Shown: positions 40,217-62,527, counted from the stretch's first letter. The stretch: DNA of 64,000 nt from Girardia tigrina (GCA_001938485.1 MQRK01228140.1:1-64000), one strand, 5' to 3'. Translations and numbers: made by a program. Notes: generated from the letters alone by a model not told the origin.

Positions 40217-42838
40217 TTAGGTTGGTCGAAAAAATAATGGCGGTTTTGGGACACAAACTTCAAAGACGTGCAAATTCACAGAAACAAAAGTTTATTAATC
40301 AAAGTATGAACCGTTGGCATCAATACATTTTTACCAACGAGAAACAAGTTGTTTTATTCTATCAGCATAAAATGCATCGGTTCTCGAAGCGACGAATTCT
40401 TGGAAGACATTTTGAGCATCATTTTGGTTTTTGAAAATTTTTTCACGTAGGAAGTTATACAAATGCCTGAAAAAGTAGACGTCCGTTTGCGAGAGGTCTG
40501 GTGAATATGGTGGATGAAGCAGGGTTTCATAGCCCAACTCATTAAGCTTTTGAAATATGAGGTCTAGCGTTATCATGAAGAAGGATGGGACTTTTTCGAT
40601 TGACCAATCCCGGACAAAGGGTTTTCAATTTTTTTGCTGGACAGGAATCCGTGTCTCCATGTTTTGGAAAGAGAAGAATTGTCTTTCAATTTATCATTTA
40701 AAGCACTCAGAGATTCTCCTCGTAGAATTACATCGTTAATTCTTTTCACCCTAATTCATTGAATATCATTCAAATTAGAATTAATTTGATTAAAGCTTAT
40801 TGGTGTTCGGGTGTAAACAGAAAATTAGTTCAAACTCGAATAGTCGAAGAACATTTTCCTTGGAGACTTTCTCGAAAACAGTATTAACACCAAAACCTAT
40901 CTGTTCGTGAAAACGACACACGTTAACGAGAGTATTCAGATTTGTTGCATCTAATTTGTCAAAATAATTCAGAAAAATGTACACCGCCGACCAATTATTG
41001 GCTGTTATGATTTTATTTATTTTTTTAAGAAGTCACTGGAATCTCTACACGATACGTTTATATTATCTTTCTCTTGAAATTCCAATTTGTATAAGATCTC
41101 ATTATATAATTTTTTAGTTTTTTTTAAATTCATTTAAACACTGACAAATTCTCTTTTTTTTAAATTGATTTAATTGTTTTAAAATTTTTTATTCCAACTT
41201 TCATTCAAAATTTAACTCACTTTTTTTAACCGAAATTGTTTTATTGTGACAAAATTTACATTTTTTAAAGACACACATGCACACCCAATTCACCAATCAT
41301 CACAAACATGCACACGACATTCCTGCACACACGTAATCATATTGGCAGAGTGAGTTAACCAAAAAAAGGAGGCTCACCATTTAATTTAAAATTTCCTCGA
41401 ATTAATCTCTCACATAATTACACATTAGTCAAACCATCGATTGATTTTGAAAATTATTTACGCATATATGTCGTTAATAATTCTTTTGAGGCGCTTGAAT
41501 TTTTTAATTCACTCGAATCAATAGATCGATGAGTAACAAATCGGAATCGGTGTCTATTTTCTGTCGACAGAAACCGTTAAATGATTAAAATATCTAGCCG
41601 TGTATCATTAAGAAATTGATGAATCTATTCGCGGATTCAAGGAAATAAATTCTGAACAAGATGTGATTGTTGACAATTATAGAAATATGAAAGAAAACAG
41701 CGATCAAATAAATCAATTCACTCATTTCTTTTGTTGTTTCTTTTTTAATATATTGCTTTTTTTAATTTAATTTATTTTATTTATTTAAACTTTTTTAATT
41801 ATTTTCTTTTATATAATTTATTAATTTAATTATATATTTTATTTATGAATTCCTGAAACTGGCAAAAATGTTCGGTCAAATCAGCAATTCTCCGCTCCAT
41901 ATGCATTTCATCAATTTCATGACAATACCTCTCCTGGATTCAAGAAACTAGTGGATGATTCCAGCATCACACCACCAAACTGTCACCATAACCTTACGGG
42001 GTGTTAGTTTCGGTTTTGGAAAGTGTTTCGGTACTTCATCTTTGTCCAACCACTGTGAAGATCGACGTCGGTTATCATAAAGGATCCATTTCTCATCACA
42101 GGTAACAATACGATAAAGAAATGGATCGTTTTTATTGCGAAGATGATTGACAGAACAAATTTCATAGCGTCGGTTCTTTTGATTTTCATTCAAATCATGT
42201 GGAACCCATTTATCAAGTTTCTTGATTTTTCCAAGTTGTTTTCACCAAGTTGTTTTCACTTAGTTGTTTTCACCAAGTTGTTTAAACTTATATACATATC
42301 AACGTAGATAAACAAAGTATAAAGCTCAAAAACCACCATTATTTTTCAATGATCCAGGACTGTTGAATGACTAATGCCCAACCCATCTGCAAGTTCTCTG
42401 ATTGTTGTACGGGGATCTGTTTCCACCATTGTCCTCAAATTGTCGTTCTTCACAGCAACTGGACGACCACGACCTTTTTCATCTGCAAGGTTTTCATCTC
42501 CATCAGAAAATTTTCGGAACCATCGTTGCACTGTGCGCTCAGAAGCTGTTCCCTAGCCAAACGCTTTATTGATATTGCGAGCCATTTCTGCTGCTTCCGA
42601 CCCAGTTTAAATTCGTACAAGAAAATTGCTCGAATTTTAATTTTTTCCATTATTAATTTAGCACCGTAAATATTCTAAAAAATAACAGCAATATGTTAAT
42701 AATGGCTATAGGAATATACAGCTAGGCATAAGATTTCAAATAATATCTAACACTAATGCATTTAAACTTATATACATATCAACGTAGATAAACAAAGTAT
42801 AAAGCTCAAAAACCACCATTATTTTTCGACCAACCTAA
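40217..42838 (-). mobile_element. Mariner DD34D, interrupted by a cargo element
   Basis: TIRs TTAGGTTGGTCGAAAAAATAATGG / CCATTATTTTTCGACCAACCTAA with TA; TCDEKW, LLHDNARPH, HPPYSPDLSQTD. Confidence 0.93.
40638..41899 (-). mobile_element. TGGA...TCCA element copy 2 (ORF-X cargo), TSD TTTGC/TATGC
   Basis: Same ~45-bp and ~165-bp termini as copy 1; splits mariner EIDEMH/KKLKTL; degenerate ORF at about 40790-41132. Confidence 0.87.
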
Positions 42839-45863: not shown

Positions 45864-46509
45864 CTAGAGTTTGAAAGCGAGTGATTGTGATAGAATGTTT
45901 TGTATACAATTTGAGAGCATTTTGTGAACTTTCTTAATTCTTTTCTTCTGAAACTCTAAATAGACAATCGTGTTTGGCGATAATATTACTGGAACACTGA
46001 TGAGATACGCCATTTGTCCATAGGTAATTTTGAGAAAGATATAATTTTTGAGGAGCATTTCAGCGATTAATAAATGCTTCTCTAATTTAACTAGCTCAAG
46101 AGGAGTTTTATTGTCATTATTGTTTGATTCGAGAATACAATGTCTTTTGAGCAACAATTTAACTATTTCTATATATCCATTTTTACAAGCAATATGAATT
46201 GGTGTATCACCATTATTGTTTTGTATGTCTACATTACATTTCTTATCAAGAAGTAATTTAACTATTTCTACATTTTCATTTTCACAAGCATTATAAATTG
46301 GTGCCTCACCATAATTGTTTTGTACATCTACTCTACAATTCTTATCAAGAAGTTTACTTATTTCTTTACTTATATTCCAACAAGCAAAATAAATTGGTGT
46401 GTCAGCATTTTTGTCTGTTACATCTACATTACAATTCTTATCGAGAAGTAATTTAACTACATCTAAATTATTTTCTTGACAAGCGATAGAAATTGGTGCA
46501 TCGCCATAT
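45864..46509 (-). pseudogene. Start-less ankyrin-repeat paralogue of the ANK-RING gene (4 repeats + cap, different C-terminus, no RING)
   Basis: Open frame YGDAPISIACQENN...TPIYFACWN...APIYNACEN...TPIHIACKNG...LEFQK, preceded by in-frame TGA. Confidence 0.85.
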
Positions 46510-46519
46510 CATTGCAAAG

Positions 46520-49305
46520 TAAATTATTGCAATGTAATCATAATAAATAATATTCAGCTAACGGATAAATTATAGAACGACTTTTGAAAATAGGATGATA
46601 TATTTTGTAATAAAATCTAAAATTAAAATGAATCTGTAAAAGAAATTATTTTGATATATTTAAAAAATATAAAAAATTAATTTAAAACAATGTTTTAATA
46701 ATATTTAATGAAAATATATATTATTTATATTAGTAAAAACAAAAATTGTAAAAATTAAAATAAACTTTTTAAAAATATTTGTTTTATACATTTAAAATGA
46801 ATAAATAAAAATTTTCATTTTTAAAATAATTATTCACAAAATATGTTTTATGTAAAAATATTATTGTATCTTTTTTGAATTTTAAGTTTAAAAAAGTATC
46901 TATCATTTAATAATAAAATAAACATAAATTAATGTATTTAATATAAAAATTATGATATCTATTATTTTTTAATTTAATAATAACTATGCGTTATATTTTT
47001 AGAATAAAAAAGTACAAAAATAGAGATTAAAATTTATGATAATATTTGAAATTTATTATTTTTTGCTATAATCATATAAATGTTATGCAGTATATTTTTT
47101 TAATTAAATTAATGAATACTTTATTGTCTCTTCATTGAGAACATTTAAGTAGTGTAAAAACAAAGAAATAAGTTTTTTTATTTGTATGACAATATTCTAA
47201 TTTAAATTTAAAATATATTTTCGTAATATAATTGAAATAAATTATTATTTAAAAAAAATACTTTTTAAAAATAATAAAAATGAGATTTAAAATAATTTGT
47301 ATTATTTTAATTGATTATAAATAAAAATGCTTTAATGATTTAGAGTATGAAATATTATTTACGATATATAAATTAGAAATCGAATTAAAATTATTCTTAA
47401 TTTTGAGTTTTAAAATATTTAATCATGATTTAAAAAATAGTATTGACAATTATGACCAACGAACCATATTAAATATTTTGAAAAGTGTATTATAAATAAA
47501 TGATTATGATTTAATGGCTTTAATATATTTTGGTAAATGTTTTTGTAAATTGCAATGTTTTAAGTGATATTAATTGAAACTTCATTTTTCCATTTTTTTC
47601 ATTTTACTATTTTTTTCTTCCTAAAAAATGAATATTGATCAAATAAATGAAAGATTAAAACATTTTATATTTTATAAAATAATAGAAATGAGTATCATAA
47701 AAAAGCAGCTGCATTTCAAAATGAAGGGATCCCATTTAAAAATTTTGTCGATCAAATTGAGAAACCTATAATTAATGTAGCTGAAAATAAAAAAGTGATT
47801 ACTATAGAAGGTTATTTAACTAAAAAAAGCACTTGAAATAGAAGGTGATAAAAAAATAATGGCAATTGAACGACTTAAAGATGAAACAGACATACAAAAT
47901 AATACTAATAATATTGTTGGGTTAATCTGATGTTTTAAATATTTATAAAAAACCTCAATTGATTTTATAAAAAATATATTTTTATGTACAGTTTAATTAC
48001 AAGAAAAATAATGTTGGGGTATTAGAGTGATCGAACTTTATTAAAATGAAAATTAAAAAGTCGATAAGTATTTTACAATTATTTATTAAAAATTAAATCG
48101 ATTTAAAAATTACTGGAAGAGAGTAACGTGTGAGGCCTCATTAATAAGATCCATGGATCAAAAAATTAATATTCAAGCTTCACATTCAATTTTTCTGTTA
48201 AACATTTTCAAATAGTACATTTATTACATAATCATCATTCTCATATACAAGCTACAAAACTAATGTTAATTTAGTCTGAAGATGGCGGGTAATCAACCGA
48301 TATTAATAAAAATAAATTTTTATTTATTTTCATAATACACTTTTCAAAATATTTAATATGGTTCGTTGGTCATAATTGTCAATACTATTTTTTAAATCAT
48401 GATTAAATTTTTTAAAACTCAAAATTAAGAATAATTTTAATTCGATTTCTAATTTATTTATCGTAAATAATATTTTATACTCTAAATCATTAAAGCATTT
48501 TAATTTATAATCAATTAAAATAATACAAATTATTTTAAATCTCATTTTTATTATTTTAAAAAATATCTTTTTTTAAATAATAATTTATTTCAATTATATT
48601 ACGAAAATATATTTTAAATTTAAATTAGAATATTGCCATACAAATAAAAAAAACTTATTTCATTGTTTTAACACTACTTAAATGTTCTCAATGAAGAGAC
48701 AATAAAATATTCATTAATTTAATTAAAAAATATACTGCATAACATTTATATGATTATAGCAAAAAATAATAAATTTCAAATATTATCATAAATTTTAATC
48801 TCTATTTTTGTACTTTTTTATTCTAAAAATATAACGCATAGTTATTATTAAATTAAAAAATAATAGATATCATAATTTTTATATTAAATACATTAATTTA
48901 TGTTTATTTTATTATTAAATGATAGATACTTTTTTAAACTTAAAATTCAAAAAAGATACAATAATATTTTTACATAAAACATATTTTGTGAATAATTATT
49001 TTAAAAATGAAAATTTTTATTTATTCATTTTAAATGTATAAAACAAATATTTTTAAAAAGTTTATTTTAATTTTTACAATTTTTGTTTTTACTAATATAA
49101 ATAATATATATTTTCATTAAATATTATTAAAACATTGTTTTAAATTTATTTTTTATATTTTTTAAATATATAAAAATAATTTCTTTCACAGATTCATTTT
49201 ATTTTTAGATTTTATTACAAAATATATCATCCTATTTTCAAAAGTCGTTCTATAATTTATCCGGTAGCTGAATATAATATATTACGATTACATTGCAATA
49301 ATTTA
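46520..49305. repeat. ~975-bp inverted repeat arms (46520-47493 / 48332-49305) around an ~840-bp spacer
   Basis: Near-identical reverse-complement match, e.g. TTATAGAACGACTTTTGAAAATAGGATGATA versus TATCATCCTATTTTCAAAAGTCGTTCTATAA. Confidence 0.92.
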
Positions 49306-49742
49306 AATCGATTTGAGTAGTCATTATCCTTTATATCATATAAAATAACAGAATATTTCTATTAATATTTTCCAATAATCAATAGTATCTCGTTTGAGAA
49401 ATAAGAGAATGCAAAGAACTGATTTAAGATCAAGATCTGTTTTCATTTTAATAATATATTTAAATTATTTTTTAAAATTAATTGCGAAAAAAACATTTTT
49501 ACCTTTATTATCATTACATATTAATTTATTACATCGATGATTAAAGTTTTCTAAAAAATAAATCTTGTAAAATATAGAATTGTACAAGTGTGATAAAAAA
49601 CTATATTATTGAAAATATTTTTTAAGGGTACCATTTAAAAATAATTTAGGTTTTAAAAGCCAATCAAATTTGATCGAAATATAATTTTATTATTTAATAG
49701 TCTCTTGAAAACAATATTATTCACAAATTATAACTATTCACA

Positions 49743-52700
49743 ATGTTTGTAAAGTTTTTAAAATCAGAGAAGACGAAATGTAATTATTCATCAATACATT
49801 TTGCTTGTACGAAAGGACAAAAGGAAATGGTAAAATTACTTCTTGATAAGAATTGTAATGTCGACGAACAAAATGTACTAGGTAAGGCACCAATTCATAT
49901 TGCTTGTCAAAAAAATAATGTAGAAATAATTAAATTACTTCTCGATAAGAATTGTAATGTAGACTTAACAGACAAAAATGATAACACACCAATTCATATC
50001 GCTTGCCAAAATGAAAATGTAGAAATAATTAAATTACTTCTCGATAAGAATTGTAATGTAGACTTAACAGACAAAAATGATAACACACCAATTCATATCG
50101 CTTGCCAAAATGAAAATGTAGAAATAATTAAATTACTTCTCGCTAAGAATTGTAATGTAGATGTAACAGACAAAAATGATAACACACCAATTCATATTGC
50201 TTGTTGGAAGGGAAAAAAAGAAATAATTAAACTTCTTTTTGATAAGAGTTGTAGTGTAGACGTACAAAACAAATATGGCGATGCACCAATTCGTATAGCT
50301 TGTGAAAATGAAAATGTAGAAATAGTTAAATTACTTCTCGATAAGAATTGTAATGTAGATGTAACAGACAAAAATGATAACACACCAATTCATATCGCTT
50401 GTCGAAATGAAAATGTAGAAATAATTAAATTACTTCTCGATAAGAATTGTAATGTTGATGTAACAGACAAAAATGCTGAGACACCAATTCATTTTGCATG
50501 CTGGAATGGAAATAAAGAAATAATTAAACTTCTTCTTGATAAGAGTTGTAAAGTAGACGTACAAAACAAAAATGGCGATGCACCAATTCATATCGCTTTT
50601 CAAAAAAATAATTTAGATGTAGTTAAATTACTTCTCGATAAGAATTGTAATGTAGATGTAACAGACAAAAATACTGACACACCAATTCATATCGCTTGTC
50701 GAAATAAAAATGTAGAAATAGTTAAATTACTTCTCGATAAGAATTGTAATGTGGATGTAACAGACAAAAATACTGACACACCAATTCATTTTGCTTGTTG
50801 GAATGGAAATAAAGAAATAATTAAACTTCTTCTTGATAAGAGTTGTAAGGTAGACGTACAAAACAAATATGGCGATGCACCAATTCATTTCGCTTGTCAA
50901 AAAAATAATTTAGATGTAGTTAAATTACTTCTCGGAAAGAATTGTAATGTAGATGTAACAGACAAAAATGCTGACACACCAATTAATTTTGCATGTTGGA
51001 ATGGAAGTAAAGAAATAATTAAACTTCTTCTTGATAAGAATTGTAGAGTACATGTACAAAACAATTATGGCGAGGCGCCAATTCATATAGCTTGTGAAAA
51101 TGAAAATGTAGAAATAGTTAAATTACTTCTCGATAAGAATTGTAATGTAGATGTAACAGACAAAAATGATAACACACCAATTCATATTGCTTGTCGAAAT
51201 AAAAATGTAGAAATAGTTAAATTACTTCTCGATAAGAATTGTAATGTAGATGTAAAAAGCAGATATAGTGACACACCAATTCATATCGCTTGTCGAAATG
51301 AAAATGTAGAAATAATTAAATTACTTCTCGCTAAGAATTGTAATGTAGATGTAACAGACAAAAATGATAACACACCAATTCATATTGCTTGTCGAAATAA
51401 AAATGTAGAAATAGTTAAATTACTTCTCGATAAGAATTGTAATGTAGATGTAAAAAGCAGATATAGTGACACACCAATTCATATCGCTTGTCGAAATGAA
51501 AATGTAGAAATAATTAAATTACTTCTCGATAAGAATTGTAATGTTGATGTAACAGACAAAGATGCTGAGACACCAATTCATTTTGCATGCTGGAATGGAA
51601 ATAAAGAAATAATTAAACTTCTTCTTGATAAGAGTTGTAAAGTAGACGTACAAAACAAAGATGGCGATGCACCAATTCATATCGCTTTTCAAAAAAATAA
51701 TTTAGATGTAGTTAAATTACTTCTCGATAAGAATTGTAATGTAGATGTAACAGACAAAAATGCTGACACACCAAATCATTTTGCTTGTTGGAATGGAAAT
51801 AAAGAAATAATTAAAGTTCTTCTTGATAAGAGTTGTAGTGTAGACGTACAAAACAAAGATGGCGATGCACCAATTCATATCGCTTGTCAAAAAAATAATT
51901 TAGATGTAGTTAAATTGCTTCTAGATAAGAATTGTAATGTAGATGTAACAGACAAAAATACTAATACACCAATTCATATCGCTTGCCAAAATGAAAATGT
52001 AGAAATACTTAAATTACTTCTCAATAAGAATTGTAATGTAGATGTAACAGACAAAAATGATAACACACCAATTTTTATGGCTTGTTGGAAGGGAAATAAA
52101 GAAATAATTGAACTTCTTCTTGATAAGAGTTGTAAAGTAGACGTACGAAACAAAAATGGCGATGCACCAATTCATATCGCTTTTCAAAAAAATAATTTAG
52201 ATGTAGTTAAATTACTTCTCGATAAAAATTGTAATGTAGATGTAACAGACAAAAATGATAACACACCAATTCATATTGCTTGTCGAAATGAAAATTTAGA
52301 GATAGTTAAATTACTTCTCGATAAGAATTGTAATGTAGATGTAAAAAGCAGATATAGTGACACACCAATTCATATCGCTTGTCGAAATGAAAATGTAGAA
52401 ATAGTTAAATTACTTCTTGATAAGAAATGTAATGTAGACATACAAAACAATAATGGTGATACACCAATTCATATTGCTTGTAAAAATGGATATATAGAAA
52501 TAGTTAAATTGTTGCTCAAAAGACATTGTATTCTCGAATCAAACAATAATGACATTAAAACTCCTCTTGAGCTAGTTAAATTAGAGAAGCATTTATTAAT
52601 CGCTGAAATTCTCCTCAAAAAGAATATCTTTCTCAAAATTACCAATTCACAAATGGCATATCTCACCAATGTTCCACTAAGATTATCACCAAACACGATT

Positions 52701-53162
52701 GTCTATTTAGAGTTTCAGAAGCTTTCTTCTTTGGATAAATCACAACTGTGTAGAAATATTCAAGATTTGGCTTTGAAATGGTACATGGATAACAAAAATA
52801 GTTTTCTAAATCTTTATGTTATGCATTTCAAAAAGCAAAAAAATATTGTACTCTTGAAACAGTATAATAAATTATTTGCATTAATGGGTCCGATGGAACG
52901 AAATTGTTTGGAGGAGCCTTACCAAAGCATCAAAAAACACAGATATCGTTTTGCTAAGCGACATCATTTTCTGACAAAAAATAAGAAAATAAGTATCAAA
53001 ATATCAGAAAAGATGTGTACTGTTTGCTATACTGAATCAGTCAAAATAAGAATAGATTGTGGTCACATATTTTGTGACAGTTGTTCAAGAAGTCTCAATA
53101 AATGTCCTGTGTGCAATTATTCGTTACAGAGTAAAAACAATTTTATTGAGATTAATATATAA
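49743..53162 (+). CDS. Intronless ankyrin-repeat (28 x 33 aa) + C-terminal C3HC4 RING protein, putative E3 ubiquitin ligase
   Basis: 1139-aa ORF; TPIHIAC...EIVKLLLDKNCNVD repeats; CTVC...CGHIFCDSC...CPVC RING. Confidence 0.93.
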   Translation: MFVKFLKSEKTKCNYSSIHFACTKGQKEMVKLLLDKNCNVDEQNVLGKAPIHIACQKNNVEIIKLLLDKNCNVDLTDKNDNTPIHIACQNENVEIIKLLLDKNCNVDLTDKNDNTPIHIACQNENVEIIKLLLAKNCNVDVTDKNDNTPIHIACWKGKKEIIKLLFDKSCSVDVQNKYGDAPIRIACENENVEIVKLLLDKNCNVDVTDKNDNTPIHIACRNENVEIIKLLLDKNCNVDVTDKNAETPIHFACWNGNKEIIKLLLDKSCKVDVQNKNGDAPIHIAFQKNNLDVVKLLLDKNCNVDVTDKNTDTPIHIACRNKNVEIVKLLLDKNCNVDVTDKNTDTPIHFACWNGNKEIIKLLLDKSCKVDVQNKYGDAPIHFACQKNNLDVVKLLLGKNCNVDVTDKNADTPINFACWNGSKEIIKLLLDKNCRVHVQNNYGEAPIHIACENENVEIVKLLLDKNCNVDVTDKNDNTPIHIACRNKNVEIVKLLLDKNCNVDVKSRYSDTPIHIACRNENVEIIKLLLAKNCNVDVTDKNDNTPIHIACRNKNVEIVKLLLDKNCNVDVKSRYSDTPIHIACRNENVEIIKLLLDKNCNVDVTDKDAETPIHFACWNGNKEIIKLLLDKSCKVDVQNKDGDAPIHIAFQKNNLDVVKLLLDKNCNVDVTDKNADTPNHFACWNGNKEIIKVLLDKSCSVDVQNKDGDAPIHIACQKNNLDVVKLLLDKNCNVDVTDKNTNTPIHIACQNENVEILKLLLNKNCNVDVTDKNDNTPIFMACWKGNKEIIELLLDKSCKVDVRNKNGDAPIHIAFQKNNLDVVKLLLDKNCNVDVTDKNDNTPIHIACRNENLEIVKLLLDKNCNVDVKSRYSDTPIHIACRNENVEIVKLLLDKKCNVDIQNNNGDTPIHIACKNGYIEIVKLLLKRHCILESNNNDIKTPLELVKLEKHLLIAEILLKKNIFLKITNSQMAYLTNVPLRLSPNTIVYLEFQKLSSLDKSQLCRNIQDLALKWYMDNKNSFLNLYVMHFKKQKNIVLLKQYNKLFALMGPMERNCLEEPYQSIKKHRYRFAKRHHFLTKNKKISIKISEKMCTVCYTESVKIRIDCGHIFCDSCSRSLNKCPVCNYSLQSKNNFIEINI

Positions 53163-54199
53163 TTTTCAATAAGGATTGACAAACAACGGTGTCACAAACC
53201 TCTGATAACTTACGTTGGAACATCCAGTGTGATAATCGATCATCTGAAAACGTTTTTCTATTCATTCAGTTTTTGTGTTTAAATATTAACTTATTTGTGT
53301 GTAATACTTGAAACTCTCATTGTGTTTGAAAATTGTGAATAAATAAATTTCTATTTCTTTTAATTTCAAATGTTAAATTAAAGAATTTATTGAATGAAGA
53401 TTGTTTATCCCAATCAATCGTGAAGAATAATTAGTTTATATTATAGTTTTTAAATAGTTTATAATAAATTTAAATTAATTTGAATAATTAAATTAATTAT
53501 TTAAAATCATTTATAATATTTAAAATAAGTATTTCAAATAATAAATAAATGTGATTAGGTATTTTTTTGCTTATTTTATTGGCTTTTTGTGAATGTCTGG
53601 TAAGTGTATGTGTGTATTGTGTGTATGATATATTAATAATTGATTGATTGAAAGTGTGTGTGTTATGTGAGTGATAATTTTGTTATTGTGAATTGTTATC
53701 ACACTTTAAATCAATTTTTTAAAAGACAATTTAAATCAGTTTGTAAAAAGAGAATTTGTCAATTTAAAAAAATAAATAAAGGAATTTAAAAAAGTTGTCA
53801 GTGTTCAAATGAATTTAAAAAAAAGATGAAAAATTATATAGTGAGATCTTATACATAATTGGAATTTCAAGAGAAAGATAATAAAAACGTATCGTGTCGA
53901 GATTCCTTTGACTTCTTAAAAAAATTAAATAAAATCATTAGAGCCAAAAATTGGTTGGCGGTATACATTTTTCTGAATTCTTTTGATAAATTACGAAAAT
54001 TTGATGCAACAAATCTGGATACTCTCGTTAACGTGGGTCGTTTTCCAGAACAGAGTAGTTTTGGTGTTAATATTATCACTATACTGATTTCAAGAATGAC
54101 TCCAAGGAAAATGTTCTCCGACTATTCGAGTTTGAACTTATTTTCTGTTTACACCCGAACACCAAATAAGCTTTAATCAAATTAATACTAATTTGAATG

Positions 54200-59537: not shown

Positions 59538-60145
59538 GTGAAAAATAAAAAATGATATAATAAGACAACTATTAAAAAATCAAAAACGTTTTTAAAAATA
59601 AAATATTTTTAATGTGTTTTTAAATATATTAAAAAAATTAAAAATGATATAATAAAAGAAAATCATAAAAAATTAAACATCTATTTAAAAATAAAAAATA
59701 TCTTTTAATCTATCTATTAAATATCTTAAAATTAAAAATGTTAAGAAAACTATAAAATATTAAGAATAATATATTAAATAATATATTAAGAAAACTATTT
59801 TCGATTTTAAAAATATTTGAATTATCCATCGAATTATTCCAATTATTGTGAATATTAAAAAAAAATATTTTTTATTAATAATCACAATTTATTTTCTTGT
59901 GAGGATATCAGTTTGTAAACCTAATAACATTATAATTACTAATAAGTAATTAAGTACATAGCTATACAAATGTACCACGTAGCAAATGCTGTTATTCTCT
60001 AATATTTAATATGATGTTTATGATACAGCCTTTTCAGGGGGCGTGGCCATATTGATTAAATTATTTGGTAAATAATTATTCGATGCCATTTTAGATTTTA
60101 CAGTCTTAAAATTAATAATAATTAAACAAATAAAAAAACCTTGAA

Positions 60146-62527
60146 ATGAAGAAAATCTCAAGTTTTTTCCCAGCTGCTGCTCCGGTAAGCAAACAATTGA
60201 AACAAGAACTTGCGGAAGGTAATGATATACAAACGACAGTCTCAGAAAAAAACGTGTGTAGGCGATGTAGACATAGACTCGGACAATGATCAGTCAAGTT
60301 GTTGGACATTGGAGCAAAAATTAAACTTCTGTGAAAGATATGAGTGGCTGTGCGTTAGAAGAAAAATGCTCGGCTGTAAAGTCTGCCGAAAGGTTGGAAC
60401 ACTTGACATAGAAGCAAAAATGGGCATGAAAATATCGAAAGAATGGACTGATGACGAAGTATCTTGTTACGGAGATGAAAAAAGAAACAACAGAATTCAC
60501 TCGGAAAGAAAATTTTGCATCACAAGGAATCTGCTGGACATCAAACTGCTGTAAAGATAGTAACAGAAGCAGAAAAGGAAAAGCTTGAATACGTAGTTTA
60601 AAAAATTAATCATTAACATTAAATCATTAACACGTGAGAAAACAGTAAGGGCTAAAATTTTTCGCACTACGTACAAAGTTGCGAAACGAAATCAGTCATT
60701 TAATAACTTTGAAATGGAAACTGATTTACAAGAAATGAACGGGATAGACATGGGTCGCATTCTACATTCGACAAATGAATGCATTAATATTGTGAACCAT
60801 ATAAGCACTGAAAGGAGACAGAAGCTGGTCAAATAAGTGGTTAATTCCAAAAGTAAAACGTCACTGATGATCGATGAATCTACGACATTGAGCGGAAAAT
60901 CAACCCTTATAATATACTTGCGAAGTTGTATAGAAGGCACTGAAATGAAAGAACCAGTAAATTTATTTCTGGACTTAGTCGAACTTCAAAGTGTCACAGC
61001 CAACGGAATCTTTACTGCTTTACTAGACTGTCTTAAATATTACGGGATTGGTGAACTATTTAGTTTCTGTTACATGTGATGGTGCATCTGTCATGTTCGG
61101 ATGCAGAAGTGGAGTAAAGAAGCTACTCACTGATAAATTTCCATCGGTGATATTCTGGTACTGTGCTAATCACAGACTTTAACTATCAGTAGAAGATACC
61201 GTAAAGGACTTTTCGGGAGTAAATAGATTTAAATCATTCCTTGATAAGCTATACGTAATATACCATGCTTCTCCAAGAAATAGTAGAGAACTGCATTCAT
61301 GTGCAAAATTACTTGGAGTAGAGTTATTGAAAATTGGACGGGTTTTAAGTACGCGATGGGTTTCTTCAAGTTTCCGTGTAGAGTTTCATGTTTGCAATAA
61401 TTATGCAGCTCTGATAAATCATTTTGAAGAAGCAATGACAAGAAGTAACAATGAGAAATGTACATATGAAGGTTTGAAGAAGAAAATTGCATCAACTGAA
61501 TTTGTGATGGATCTTGGTCTGATGTGTGATGCTCTTCAAGAGTTATCTGAATTTAGCTTGGACCTACAACAGCGAAACATGAATCTTTACAAAGTAAATC
61601 AAAAAATAAAATCACTCTAACAGGTGTTCGTGGAACGAAGGGAAAATCCATGCCCATTCTACAGGAATGTAACAGCAGCTGCTGAGCATCTAATATTTAA
61701 TGAATTTGTACTACACAACAGAAACTGCAAAAATGACCATCCTATTGATGCAAATGTCTTTTACGAGAAACTTAGCGAATCCATTGCGAAAAGATTACTG
61801 TCTAATGAGGATGTTGAACTAGCTCAATGGACTAGCATACTAGATCAGAGCCATTGGACAGATAACATGAACAACCAGTTGACATTTGGAGAAGCGGAAA
61901 TTGAGAAATTGTGTAGCAGGCTACAACTTAATGCAAGAGAAATCATTCATGGATTCGGTGATTATCTTACGGAAAGAACATATTCTTAAAGAATTCTTCC
62001 TCTGACATATGCTCTTAATACAATTTCCATTTCTTCCAGCGAGTGTGAAAGTGGATTCTCACAAATGAATTTAATAATCACCCCAACGAGAGCTTCGCAT
62101 ATGATAAAATTAATCTCGGAACTTTTATTCATCAGAATGGTCGGCCCTCTATTAACATATTTTGATCCTAGAAAGTACGTAGACTCTTGGCTGCTTCGAG
62201 GCAAAGCAAGAAAAGAAATCGAGATGATTTGTCTGATGAAAACATGAGAAAACTCTGGAAATTATTTTAAAGCCCAATACGGTACAGTATCATAATACAA
62301 TAGAATACATTTGTGATTTTTCCACATAAACTTTAGTCAGGTCGCTTTTAATTATAAATAAACTCTTTGAGTCTCTCATTTACTTATAAAAAAACGTTTG
62401 TCTTTAAATTTCCTGTAAAATAAATTTGTGTTCAGTGGGAAAATTCAATTATAGTACTTTCTAACATAAGGTAAAAACACATATAAAATGAGTTCCCAAA
62501 CCTTTTTTTATTAGAAATAAAGCACTG
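60146..62527 (+). mobile_element. hAT transposon (ZNF862-like transposase pseudogene), right TIR present
   Basis: LGCKVC, SLMIDESTT, CDGASVMFG, CANHRL, TRWVSS, SSSECESGFSQMNLI; ends AATAAAGCACTG. Confidence 0.88.

Follow-up and report, generated by a model that had tools for sequence, protein, structure and literature searches.

An ankyrin-RING gene of the flatworm Girardia tigrina belongs to a family of hundreds of copies with fast-changing predicted binding positions

What is a single-exon gene of 3.4 kb, built of ankyrin repeats and ending in a RING, doing in the genome of Girardia tigrina? The gene lies at positions 49743-53162, on the plus strand, of a 64,000-nt stretch of DNA (MQRK01228140.1:1-64000, assembly GCA_001938485.1), which we call the window, and it is one of at least 299 single-open-reading-frame copies of the same ankyrin-linker-RING design in this genome. 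An initial annotation of the window had dealt with this gene by itself and had overlooked that the proper object of study is a family, hundreds of genes strong. On balance, we favour the reading that this family consists of diversified single-chain ubiquitin ligases, whose targets, probably foreign proteins that change fast, would be recognised and marked for degradation.

The open reading frame (ORF) is intact, as the initial annotation had it, and its 1139 amino acids (aa) make it the longest complete copy among those sampled, the remaining complete copies having 343-964 aa. The parts of the gene and its flanks are the following:

48300-49742, plus strand: AT-rich 5' flank, which close paralogues share at 86-95% identity
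49743-53162, plus strand: ankyrin-linker-RING ORF of 1139 aa, one open frame with no stop
49743-49874, plus strand: N-terminal leader and first, cap-like ankyrin unit, with a start context common to close paralogues
49875-52547, plus strand: 27 in-register 99-bp ankyrin units of about five classes, with duplicated multi-unit blocks
52548-52646, plus strand: last ankyrin unit, divergent and cap-like, kept across the family
52647-53015, plus strand: family-specific linker of about 120 aa, without Pfam match or outside homologue
53016-53114, plus strand: C3HC4 RING (PF13920), with all eight zinc ligands in RING-HC spacing
53163-53551, plus strand: 3' flank shared with paralogues to about +389, its boundary varying between copies

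A Pfam scan of the 1139-aa protein gives 28 ankyrin stretches, and in the last 200 aa the RING profile scores 31.2 bits for a cut-off of 27, so that the 28 repeats and the C3HC4 RING first proposed for this gene are both confirmed. Beyond ankyrin repeats and one RING, the scan of the protein yields no domain, be it NACHT, NB-ARC or the N-terminal domains of Mind bomb. The closest solved structures to the RING are those of the IAP proteins BIRC7, cIAP2, cIAP1 and XIAP, with an alignment E of 3e-7 for BIRC7/cIAP. An Arg after the last RING Cys is an activating residue; 45 of 57 copies have it, while 11, including the present one, have Asn and one has Ile. The linker is predicted to be helical, at low confidence, in a model of the C-terminal structure (predicted local distance difference test, pLDDT, 51), which gives weak structural matches to RINGs only and none at E<=0.001. 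A single-sequence model of a short paralogue (pLDDT 41) was not used.

The size of the family was estimated in the genome assembly (G000), which holds 1.43 Gb in 255,254 contigs. The C-terminal 204 aa found 1855 candidates there, and the 150 that were scored gave 151 matches; the 150 listed, a top list that is biased toward intact C-termini, all have E<1e-61 and 62-100% identity. A 16-mer from the linker has 299 exact matches, against 1 for a control motif, and the gene is thus not single-copy. This 16-mer is carried by 49 of the 61 copies sampled, and all of the contigs checked that have it outside the best list (20/20) hold family members. Scaled by 49/61, the 299 matches suggest about 370 copies, pseudogenes and probable haplotype duplicates included. 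A second count motif of 17 nt (591 matches, 23 for its control) was dropped because 18 of the 20 contigs unique to it carry an unrelated repeat, the remaining 2 being family; this repeat (L210-L229) is short, abundant and lies beside (TA)n tracts.

The family contains both whole and broken copies. Among the 61 sampled rows, 38 are complete from the start to the RING, 10 have assembly gaps, 2 lie at a contig edge and 11 were broken or filtered, one of them (L169) having failed the filter on start position only. The lower-scoring sample of 22 motif matches comprises 6 copies that are open from the start through the RING, 9 that run off their contig and 7 that are broken. A third subfamily (L230, L234, L235, L238, L243 and L246) has a linker shortened by in-frame internal deletions, with several tandem partial copies. 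On one contig (G000:C214202; L078, L079), a second, inverted copy is 99.4% identical over 1717 nt of the 5' flank and array start and ends inside the array, which is either a very recent duplicate or an assembly artefact.

The array itself is highly regular. Tandem Repeats Finder gives a period of 99 bp with 27.1 copies and 79% matches over 49833-52510, and 28 T/A-P sites are spaced exactly 33 aa apart. The beta-turn classes that the initial annotation had named (KND, KNA, KYG, RYS, KDG) are all found, together with KNG, KNT, NYG and KDA, and so are all of its di-residues (RN, QN, EN, QK, WN, WK). Its statement that the units are almost identical in DNA is right within a class and wrong overall: the pairwise median for the 25 inner units is 17 differences in 99 nt (range 0-34), and 5 or fewer are seen in 20 of 300 pairs. 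The shuffled order that it described does not hold either, as there are 10 distinct class bigrams where shuffles give 15.1 (P=0.0002), and what comes after a W-class unit is of class L or E in 7 cases of 7. Blocks of 2-3 units come back, 98-99% identical, at distances of up to 11 units, in particular one of 293 nt with 2 mismatches, 11 units apart, and one of 265 nt with 4 mismatches, 2 units apart; with these 265-293-nt blocks, the array displays high internal repeat conservation and concerted evolution. Unit order is thus patterned by block duplication, not random. Site compatibility is higher for near than for far sites (P=0.03), a weak sign of recombination inside units.

Across the family, arrays have about 4-28 units, and copies that are 95-96% alike in their C-terminus can have 28 and 17, 23 and 15, or 13 and 6 of them, these being differences between copies of one assembly. 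Of 332 units, 163 (23 ties) have their closest counterpart within their own gene, where 3.5% would be expected, which points to turnover within arrays.

We then have to consider where the units differ. Six columns, ankyrin positions 2, 3, 5, 13, 14 and 33, which are library positions of designed ankyrin repeat proteins (DARPins), were chosen before the family analysis. A second set, that of ANK-N5C (positions 2, 3, 5, 10, 13 and 33; PMC4308713), was added afterwards, and paratope columns were mapped by consensus register, no structure model being reliable. The claim that variation is focused on binding positions proved strong at the level of the family, in which entropy is 2.67 bits at the paratope and 1.04 bits elsewhere (P=1e-5), and modest within the single gene, with 1.28 against 0.67 bits (P=0.017) and non-paratope columns 14, 16, 28 and 33 that are also variable.

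The ratio of nonsynonymous to synonymous rates (omega) was estimated on in-register units, 333 in number and 324 of them unique, which came from 35 of the 38 complete genes; the pattern missed the other three genes, and first units as well as units with indels were omitted. The codon model was run on three random subsets of 120 units. The six DARPin columns have omega of 3.10, 3.18 and 2.52 in the three subsets (twice the log-likelihood difference, 2dL, from omega=1 of 18.6-25.9), and the other 27 columns 0.54-0.63, both classes differing from 1 (2dL 18.6-38.8 overall); for the ANK-N5C columns the values are 2.04-2.23, against 0.55-0.62 elsewhere. Change is thus not spread evenly along the repeat, with omega of 2.0-3.2 at the paratope and about 0.6 elsewhere. 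In the position-fixed last full repeat, taken once per gene on the gene tree (38 rows, of which three seemingly non-orthologous ones were kept), omega is 4.66 or 2.26 for the two column sets and 0.52 elsewhere, and 53 units from held-out contigs give 2.07 or 2.33 against 0.41 (2dL 3.9, 5.7 and 30.8). Counting on a minimum spanning tree leads to the same picture, the ratio of nonsynonymous to synonymous changes being 13.6 at paratope columns for 4.3 expected and 2.4 elsewhere for 4.2 expected, expectations that come from fitting a mutation model to 20 flanks. Codon fits for two other column sets, "core" and "convex", did not move from omega=1.0 and were discarded. All of this (omega 2.0-4.7 against 0.4-0.6) argues for positive selection on the predicted concave face, and the repeat framework is under purifying selection. 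The C-terminus has an omega of 0.77 overall, with 0.85 in the linker, not significantly different from 1, and 0.69 in the RING (2dL 5.9). Stops were found in 6 of the 150 listed matches, a list biased toward intact copies, for about 1.5 per copy expected under neutrality (terminal branches of 0.106 per codon, 7% of changes being nonsense).

An array of variable length, whose binding positions change faster than neutral and which is joined to a RING, likely makes for a diversified repertoire that recognises and ubiquitinates. In such a repertoire, the concave ankyrin face would bind the substrate, as the register and work on other ankyrin proteins suggest (PMC4308713, PMC8683736); the RING would recruit a ubiquitin-loaded E2, as is established for IAP-type RINGs, and the target would be ubiquitinated. 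Unequal crossing-over and conversion would reshuffle the repeats, new copies would come from pieces of 2-8 kb, duplicated as DNA and ragged at their ends, and selection would come from non-self, namely proteins of intracellular parasites or of mobile elements. Diversity has three sources here: selected point change, gain and loss of repeat blocks, and gene birth and death. We thus see a host birth-and-death family of E3 ligases with diversified binding surfaces, probably for defence and probably directed at intracellular parasites, and what the initial annotation had proposed, a recognition array diversified by recombination and joined to a RING, is supported.

Several points weigh against this reading. 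Expression, ligase activity and targets are all putative. The count takes in probable haplotype duplicates in an assembly of 255,254 contigs, and in the lower-scoring sample 7 of the 22 copies are visibly broken and 9 run off their contig. The copy in the window carries Asn, not Arg, after its last RING Cys, the linker is near neutral and the RING weakly constrained. Recombination violates the tree that codon models assume, the significance of the paratope signal in the held-out units is modest (2dL 3.9 and 5.7), and positive selection shows an arms race, not its partner.

A bolder version of the ligase reading, which we put forward tentatively and as a possibility of low probability, is that of a natural DARPin-RING library of "intracellular antibodies": hundreds of single-chain degraders with paratopes renewed by point selection and block recombination, possibly also in adult stem cells, and aimed at intracellular pathogens or at proteins of the Mavericks, virus-like elements that abound in this genome.

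The main rival keeps the adaptive E3 repertoire and changes its target, which would be fast-evolving host or selfish proteins in the germline or stem cells (drive, toxin-antidote systems, cell competition) and not those of pathogens. The same selection signal would fit, and the genome is rich in mobile elements, a query with one Maverick protein, a phospholipase A2 (PLA2)-integrase, having 2567 first-look candidates. We nevertheless find this arms race within the genome unlikely: no linked partner gene was seen in the flanks of about 60 copies, and the closest published analogues are systems of non-self recognition. The very abundant Mavericks comprise at least two Maverick/Polinton families (L115-L117, at G000:C238657:28800-39000, and L156-L158), which differ in gene order. 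Their integrase is preceded by a PLA2 fused to it, and they further encode a capsid of the double jelly-roll type, a core like adenovirus protein X and an A32 ATPase.

These elements bring us to how the gene spreads, and to whether it is itself the cargo of a Maverick, Penelope-like or other element, an effector carried along, as the initial annotation had offered for a transposable element or virus. The gene is intronless and dispersed, inverted repeats occur in 9 of 35 5' flanks, one subclade has a Maverick capsid/core piece 2.4-4.7 kb upstream of the gene, and one copy has a Maverick PLA2-integrase 1.4 kb downstream. However, the upstream piece is decayed while the gene is whole. Its free relatives (67-80% identity) encode capsid, core protein and integrase, and in the partial free-Maverick stretches examined the ankyrin-RING gene is absent from the gene run. 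Among Maverick-linked stretches, it is found only in C217451, with the integrase 4 kb away, and in C243763, in a co-duplicated flank. We therefore rejected the Maverick-cargo idea, as the free elements go on with other element genes, and we take the decayed piece to be a passenger.

The boundaries of the copies are no more favourable to cargo of any kind. The flank that copies have in common measures 0.1-4.2 kb on the 5' side and 0.06-1.8 kb on the 3' side, its ends being scattered from -84 to -4207 and from +63 to +1809. The 22 copies with both boundaries are at chance for target-site duplications (mean length 5.5, null 5.9) and terminal repeats (6.9, null 6.4) and have no poly(A) tail, their A-runs being of 8 or fewer, though old signals of these three kinds may have decayed. 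A sharp 3' terminus at +386 dissolved on alignment. Rfam has no match in 9 loci, and these therefore hold no hammerhead. With no viral relative found either, the gene as a passenger of an element or virus is improbable. The proximal 640 nt or so of the 5' flank also match a distant subfamily, at 67-77%. A scrap about 2200-1850 nt upstream of the ATG (L083; partly window 48097-48321) resembles, by eye, a Penelope-like GIY-YIG end; it is part of the 5' flank common to the close subfamily, and free copies are about 70% identical. The simplest account of the spread is that pieces the size of a gene were duplicated at the DNA level, at times head-to-head, which the window and C233021 illustrate. 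The long flanks of 15 contigs are mostly interspersed repeats. One collinear 1.1-kb segment is shared with C233021, and larger old segmental duplications, which a fragmented assembly may hide, may thus also have occurred.

Could the amplification be largely neutral, and the paratope variation no more than what conversion between repeat classes leaves behind on a surface that tolerates it? A linker with omega near 1 and the many broken copies would fit. But a tolerant surface could raise omega to 1 at most, not to 2-4, and the codons at issue had their synonymous changes counted as well; moreover, the signal persists in the position-fixed repeat, there are far fewer stops than neutrality would give and purifying selection acts on the framework. 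We judge this explanation quite improbable.

Another origin for the family would be a founder gene taken from Nucleocytoviricota, giant DNA viruses that commonly have ankyrin genes, and later amplified by the host. The gene is intronless, and a giant-virus ankyrin cluster is the second Atlas match for the C-terminal part (0.91, 146/256 features); however, the top Atlas match of both queries (0.97 and 0.91) is a Platyhelminthes ankyrin cluster. A profile of 34 C-termini run against 1.84 billion proteins has 264 matches at E<=0.001, of which one is below 1e-10: a full-length relative on a 925-bp contig, itself a member of the family. The next-best matches centre on the RING, and no relative of the linker outside the family was found in that search. 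A word-indexed search with the C-terminus had no match among proteins of length 626-1994, and a search with a 534-aa paralogue found generic ankyrins at 40% identity or less, over the repeats only. Two candidates were set aside: P0226, the sole match with 94% cover of that paralogue, shares the RING only, and the one match on a viral contig, a protein with an N-terminal RING, is unrelated. Nor were core genes of the giant-virus kind seen in the flanks, and we hold a viral founder to be very improbable. Our literature search, with most subscription papers outside its reach, found no description of this ankyrin-RING family. A planarian screen lists 393 RING/U-box transcripts and a TRAF expansion, and the word "ankyrin" was not found in the available part of its text (PMC8807557), though its supplementary table could hold relatives; planarian ankyrin proteins are mentioned, in general terms only, in the accessible part of another article (PMC13034038).

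That the length of 28 repeats is an assembly artefact is scarcely credible. In its favour are a fragmented assembly, gaps in 10 of 61 sampled copies and the identity of unit 14 with unit 16; against it, exact internal matches reach 197 nt at most, the ORF has no N, the frame is kept and the same architecture stands on many independent contigs.

The rest of the window is not the decayed landscape first described. A multi-exon myosin VI gene runs over 442-39230 on the plus strand, with seven open, Pfam-supported exons that cover motor, lever and cargo-binding domain; its introns are crowded with relics of mariner/Tc1, of LTR elements and of others. Two features then precede the ankyrin-RING gene and form a head-to-head pair with it:

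45864-46508, minus strand: truncated inverted paralogue (93%), with a few ankyrin units and the linker start, without start region or RING
46520-47496, minus strand: inverted copy of the 5' flank, 97-98% identical to 48329-49305, which makes the head-to-head pair

An inverted repeat at 85% (40767-41180 and 53769-54199) brackets this pair, and may be an inversion remnant or two small-element insertions. Further along, 60134-62244 on the plus strand holds fragmented long frames, by eye of a hAT-type transposase, and the one piece scanned has no Pfam match.

Should the ligase reading be true, this lineage would own a set of recognition proteins about as large as the F-box expansion of nematodes, each with its ligase on the same chain and with the scaffold and surface positions on which the engineers of DARPins settled. 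It would open a concrete way into how an invertebrate that has no antibodies recognises non-self inside its cells, and the conserved linker would allow the entire family to be knocked down at once. Ankyrin binders by the hundred, already selected in nature, would become available, together with a natural model of how a bioPROTAC can be arranged.

How does this family compare with known systems? Mind bomb-like and plant XB3/XBAT E3 ligases, which Atlas clusters and MIB1 chains brought up, also have ankyrin repeats N-terminal to a C3HC4 RING. Mind bomb has MIB/HERC2, ZZ and SH3-like N-terminal domains and several RINGs, and Mind bomb-like and XB3/XBAT genes are low-copy and conserved. The flatworm protein, in contrast, has one RING and no N-terminal Mind bomb domains, and its best outside identity is 40%, over the repeats only. 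In Giardia, ankyrin repeat protein 2 likewise forms a multigene family, of 33 genes, with ankyrin repeats and a zinc finger; its linker is unrelated, its genes are about ten times fewer, and no near-identical repeats or diversifying selection are reported in the available part of the paper (PMC7000408). Engineered DARPin bioPROTACs, as described in the accessible part of their report, fuse a variable designed-ankyrin paratope to an E3 module that degrades its target (PMC12181330); they are synthetic, CHIP-based and made with short binders, whereas the flatworm family is natural, RING-based, has about 4-28 repeats and a predicted activity.

The two closest parallels are to be found elsewhere. 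In fungal NLR ankyrins, according to the part of the work available to us (Dyrka et al. 2014, PMC4986451), the units are near-identical and vary in number, they evolve in concert, and the concave face and beta-hairpin are under positive selection; the flatworm family is like them in its near-identical units, repeat-number variation, concerted evolution and selection on the binding face. It differs in lacking NACHT/NB-ARC and a death effector, in having its array N-terminal and fused to a RING, in being animal and in its hundreds of copies. The expansion of F-box and MATH-BTB adaptors in nematodes, proposed to target foreign proteins, likewise has hundreds of ubiquitin-system genes with diversified substrate-binding parts, as far as the accessible text goes (PMC4063957). 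Those are cullin adaptors, however, while the flatworm family is a single chain with its own RING, which also varies in the number and order of its repeats. Set against the available parts of both studies, the family thus evolves like the fungal NLR ankyrins and would fill the role proposed for the nematode F-box genes, and it is a member of neither group.

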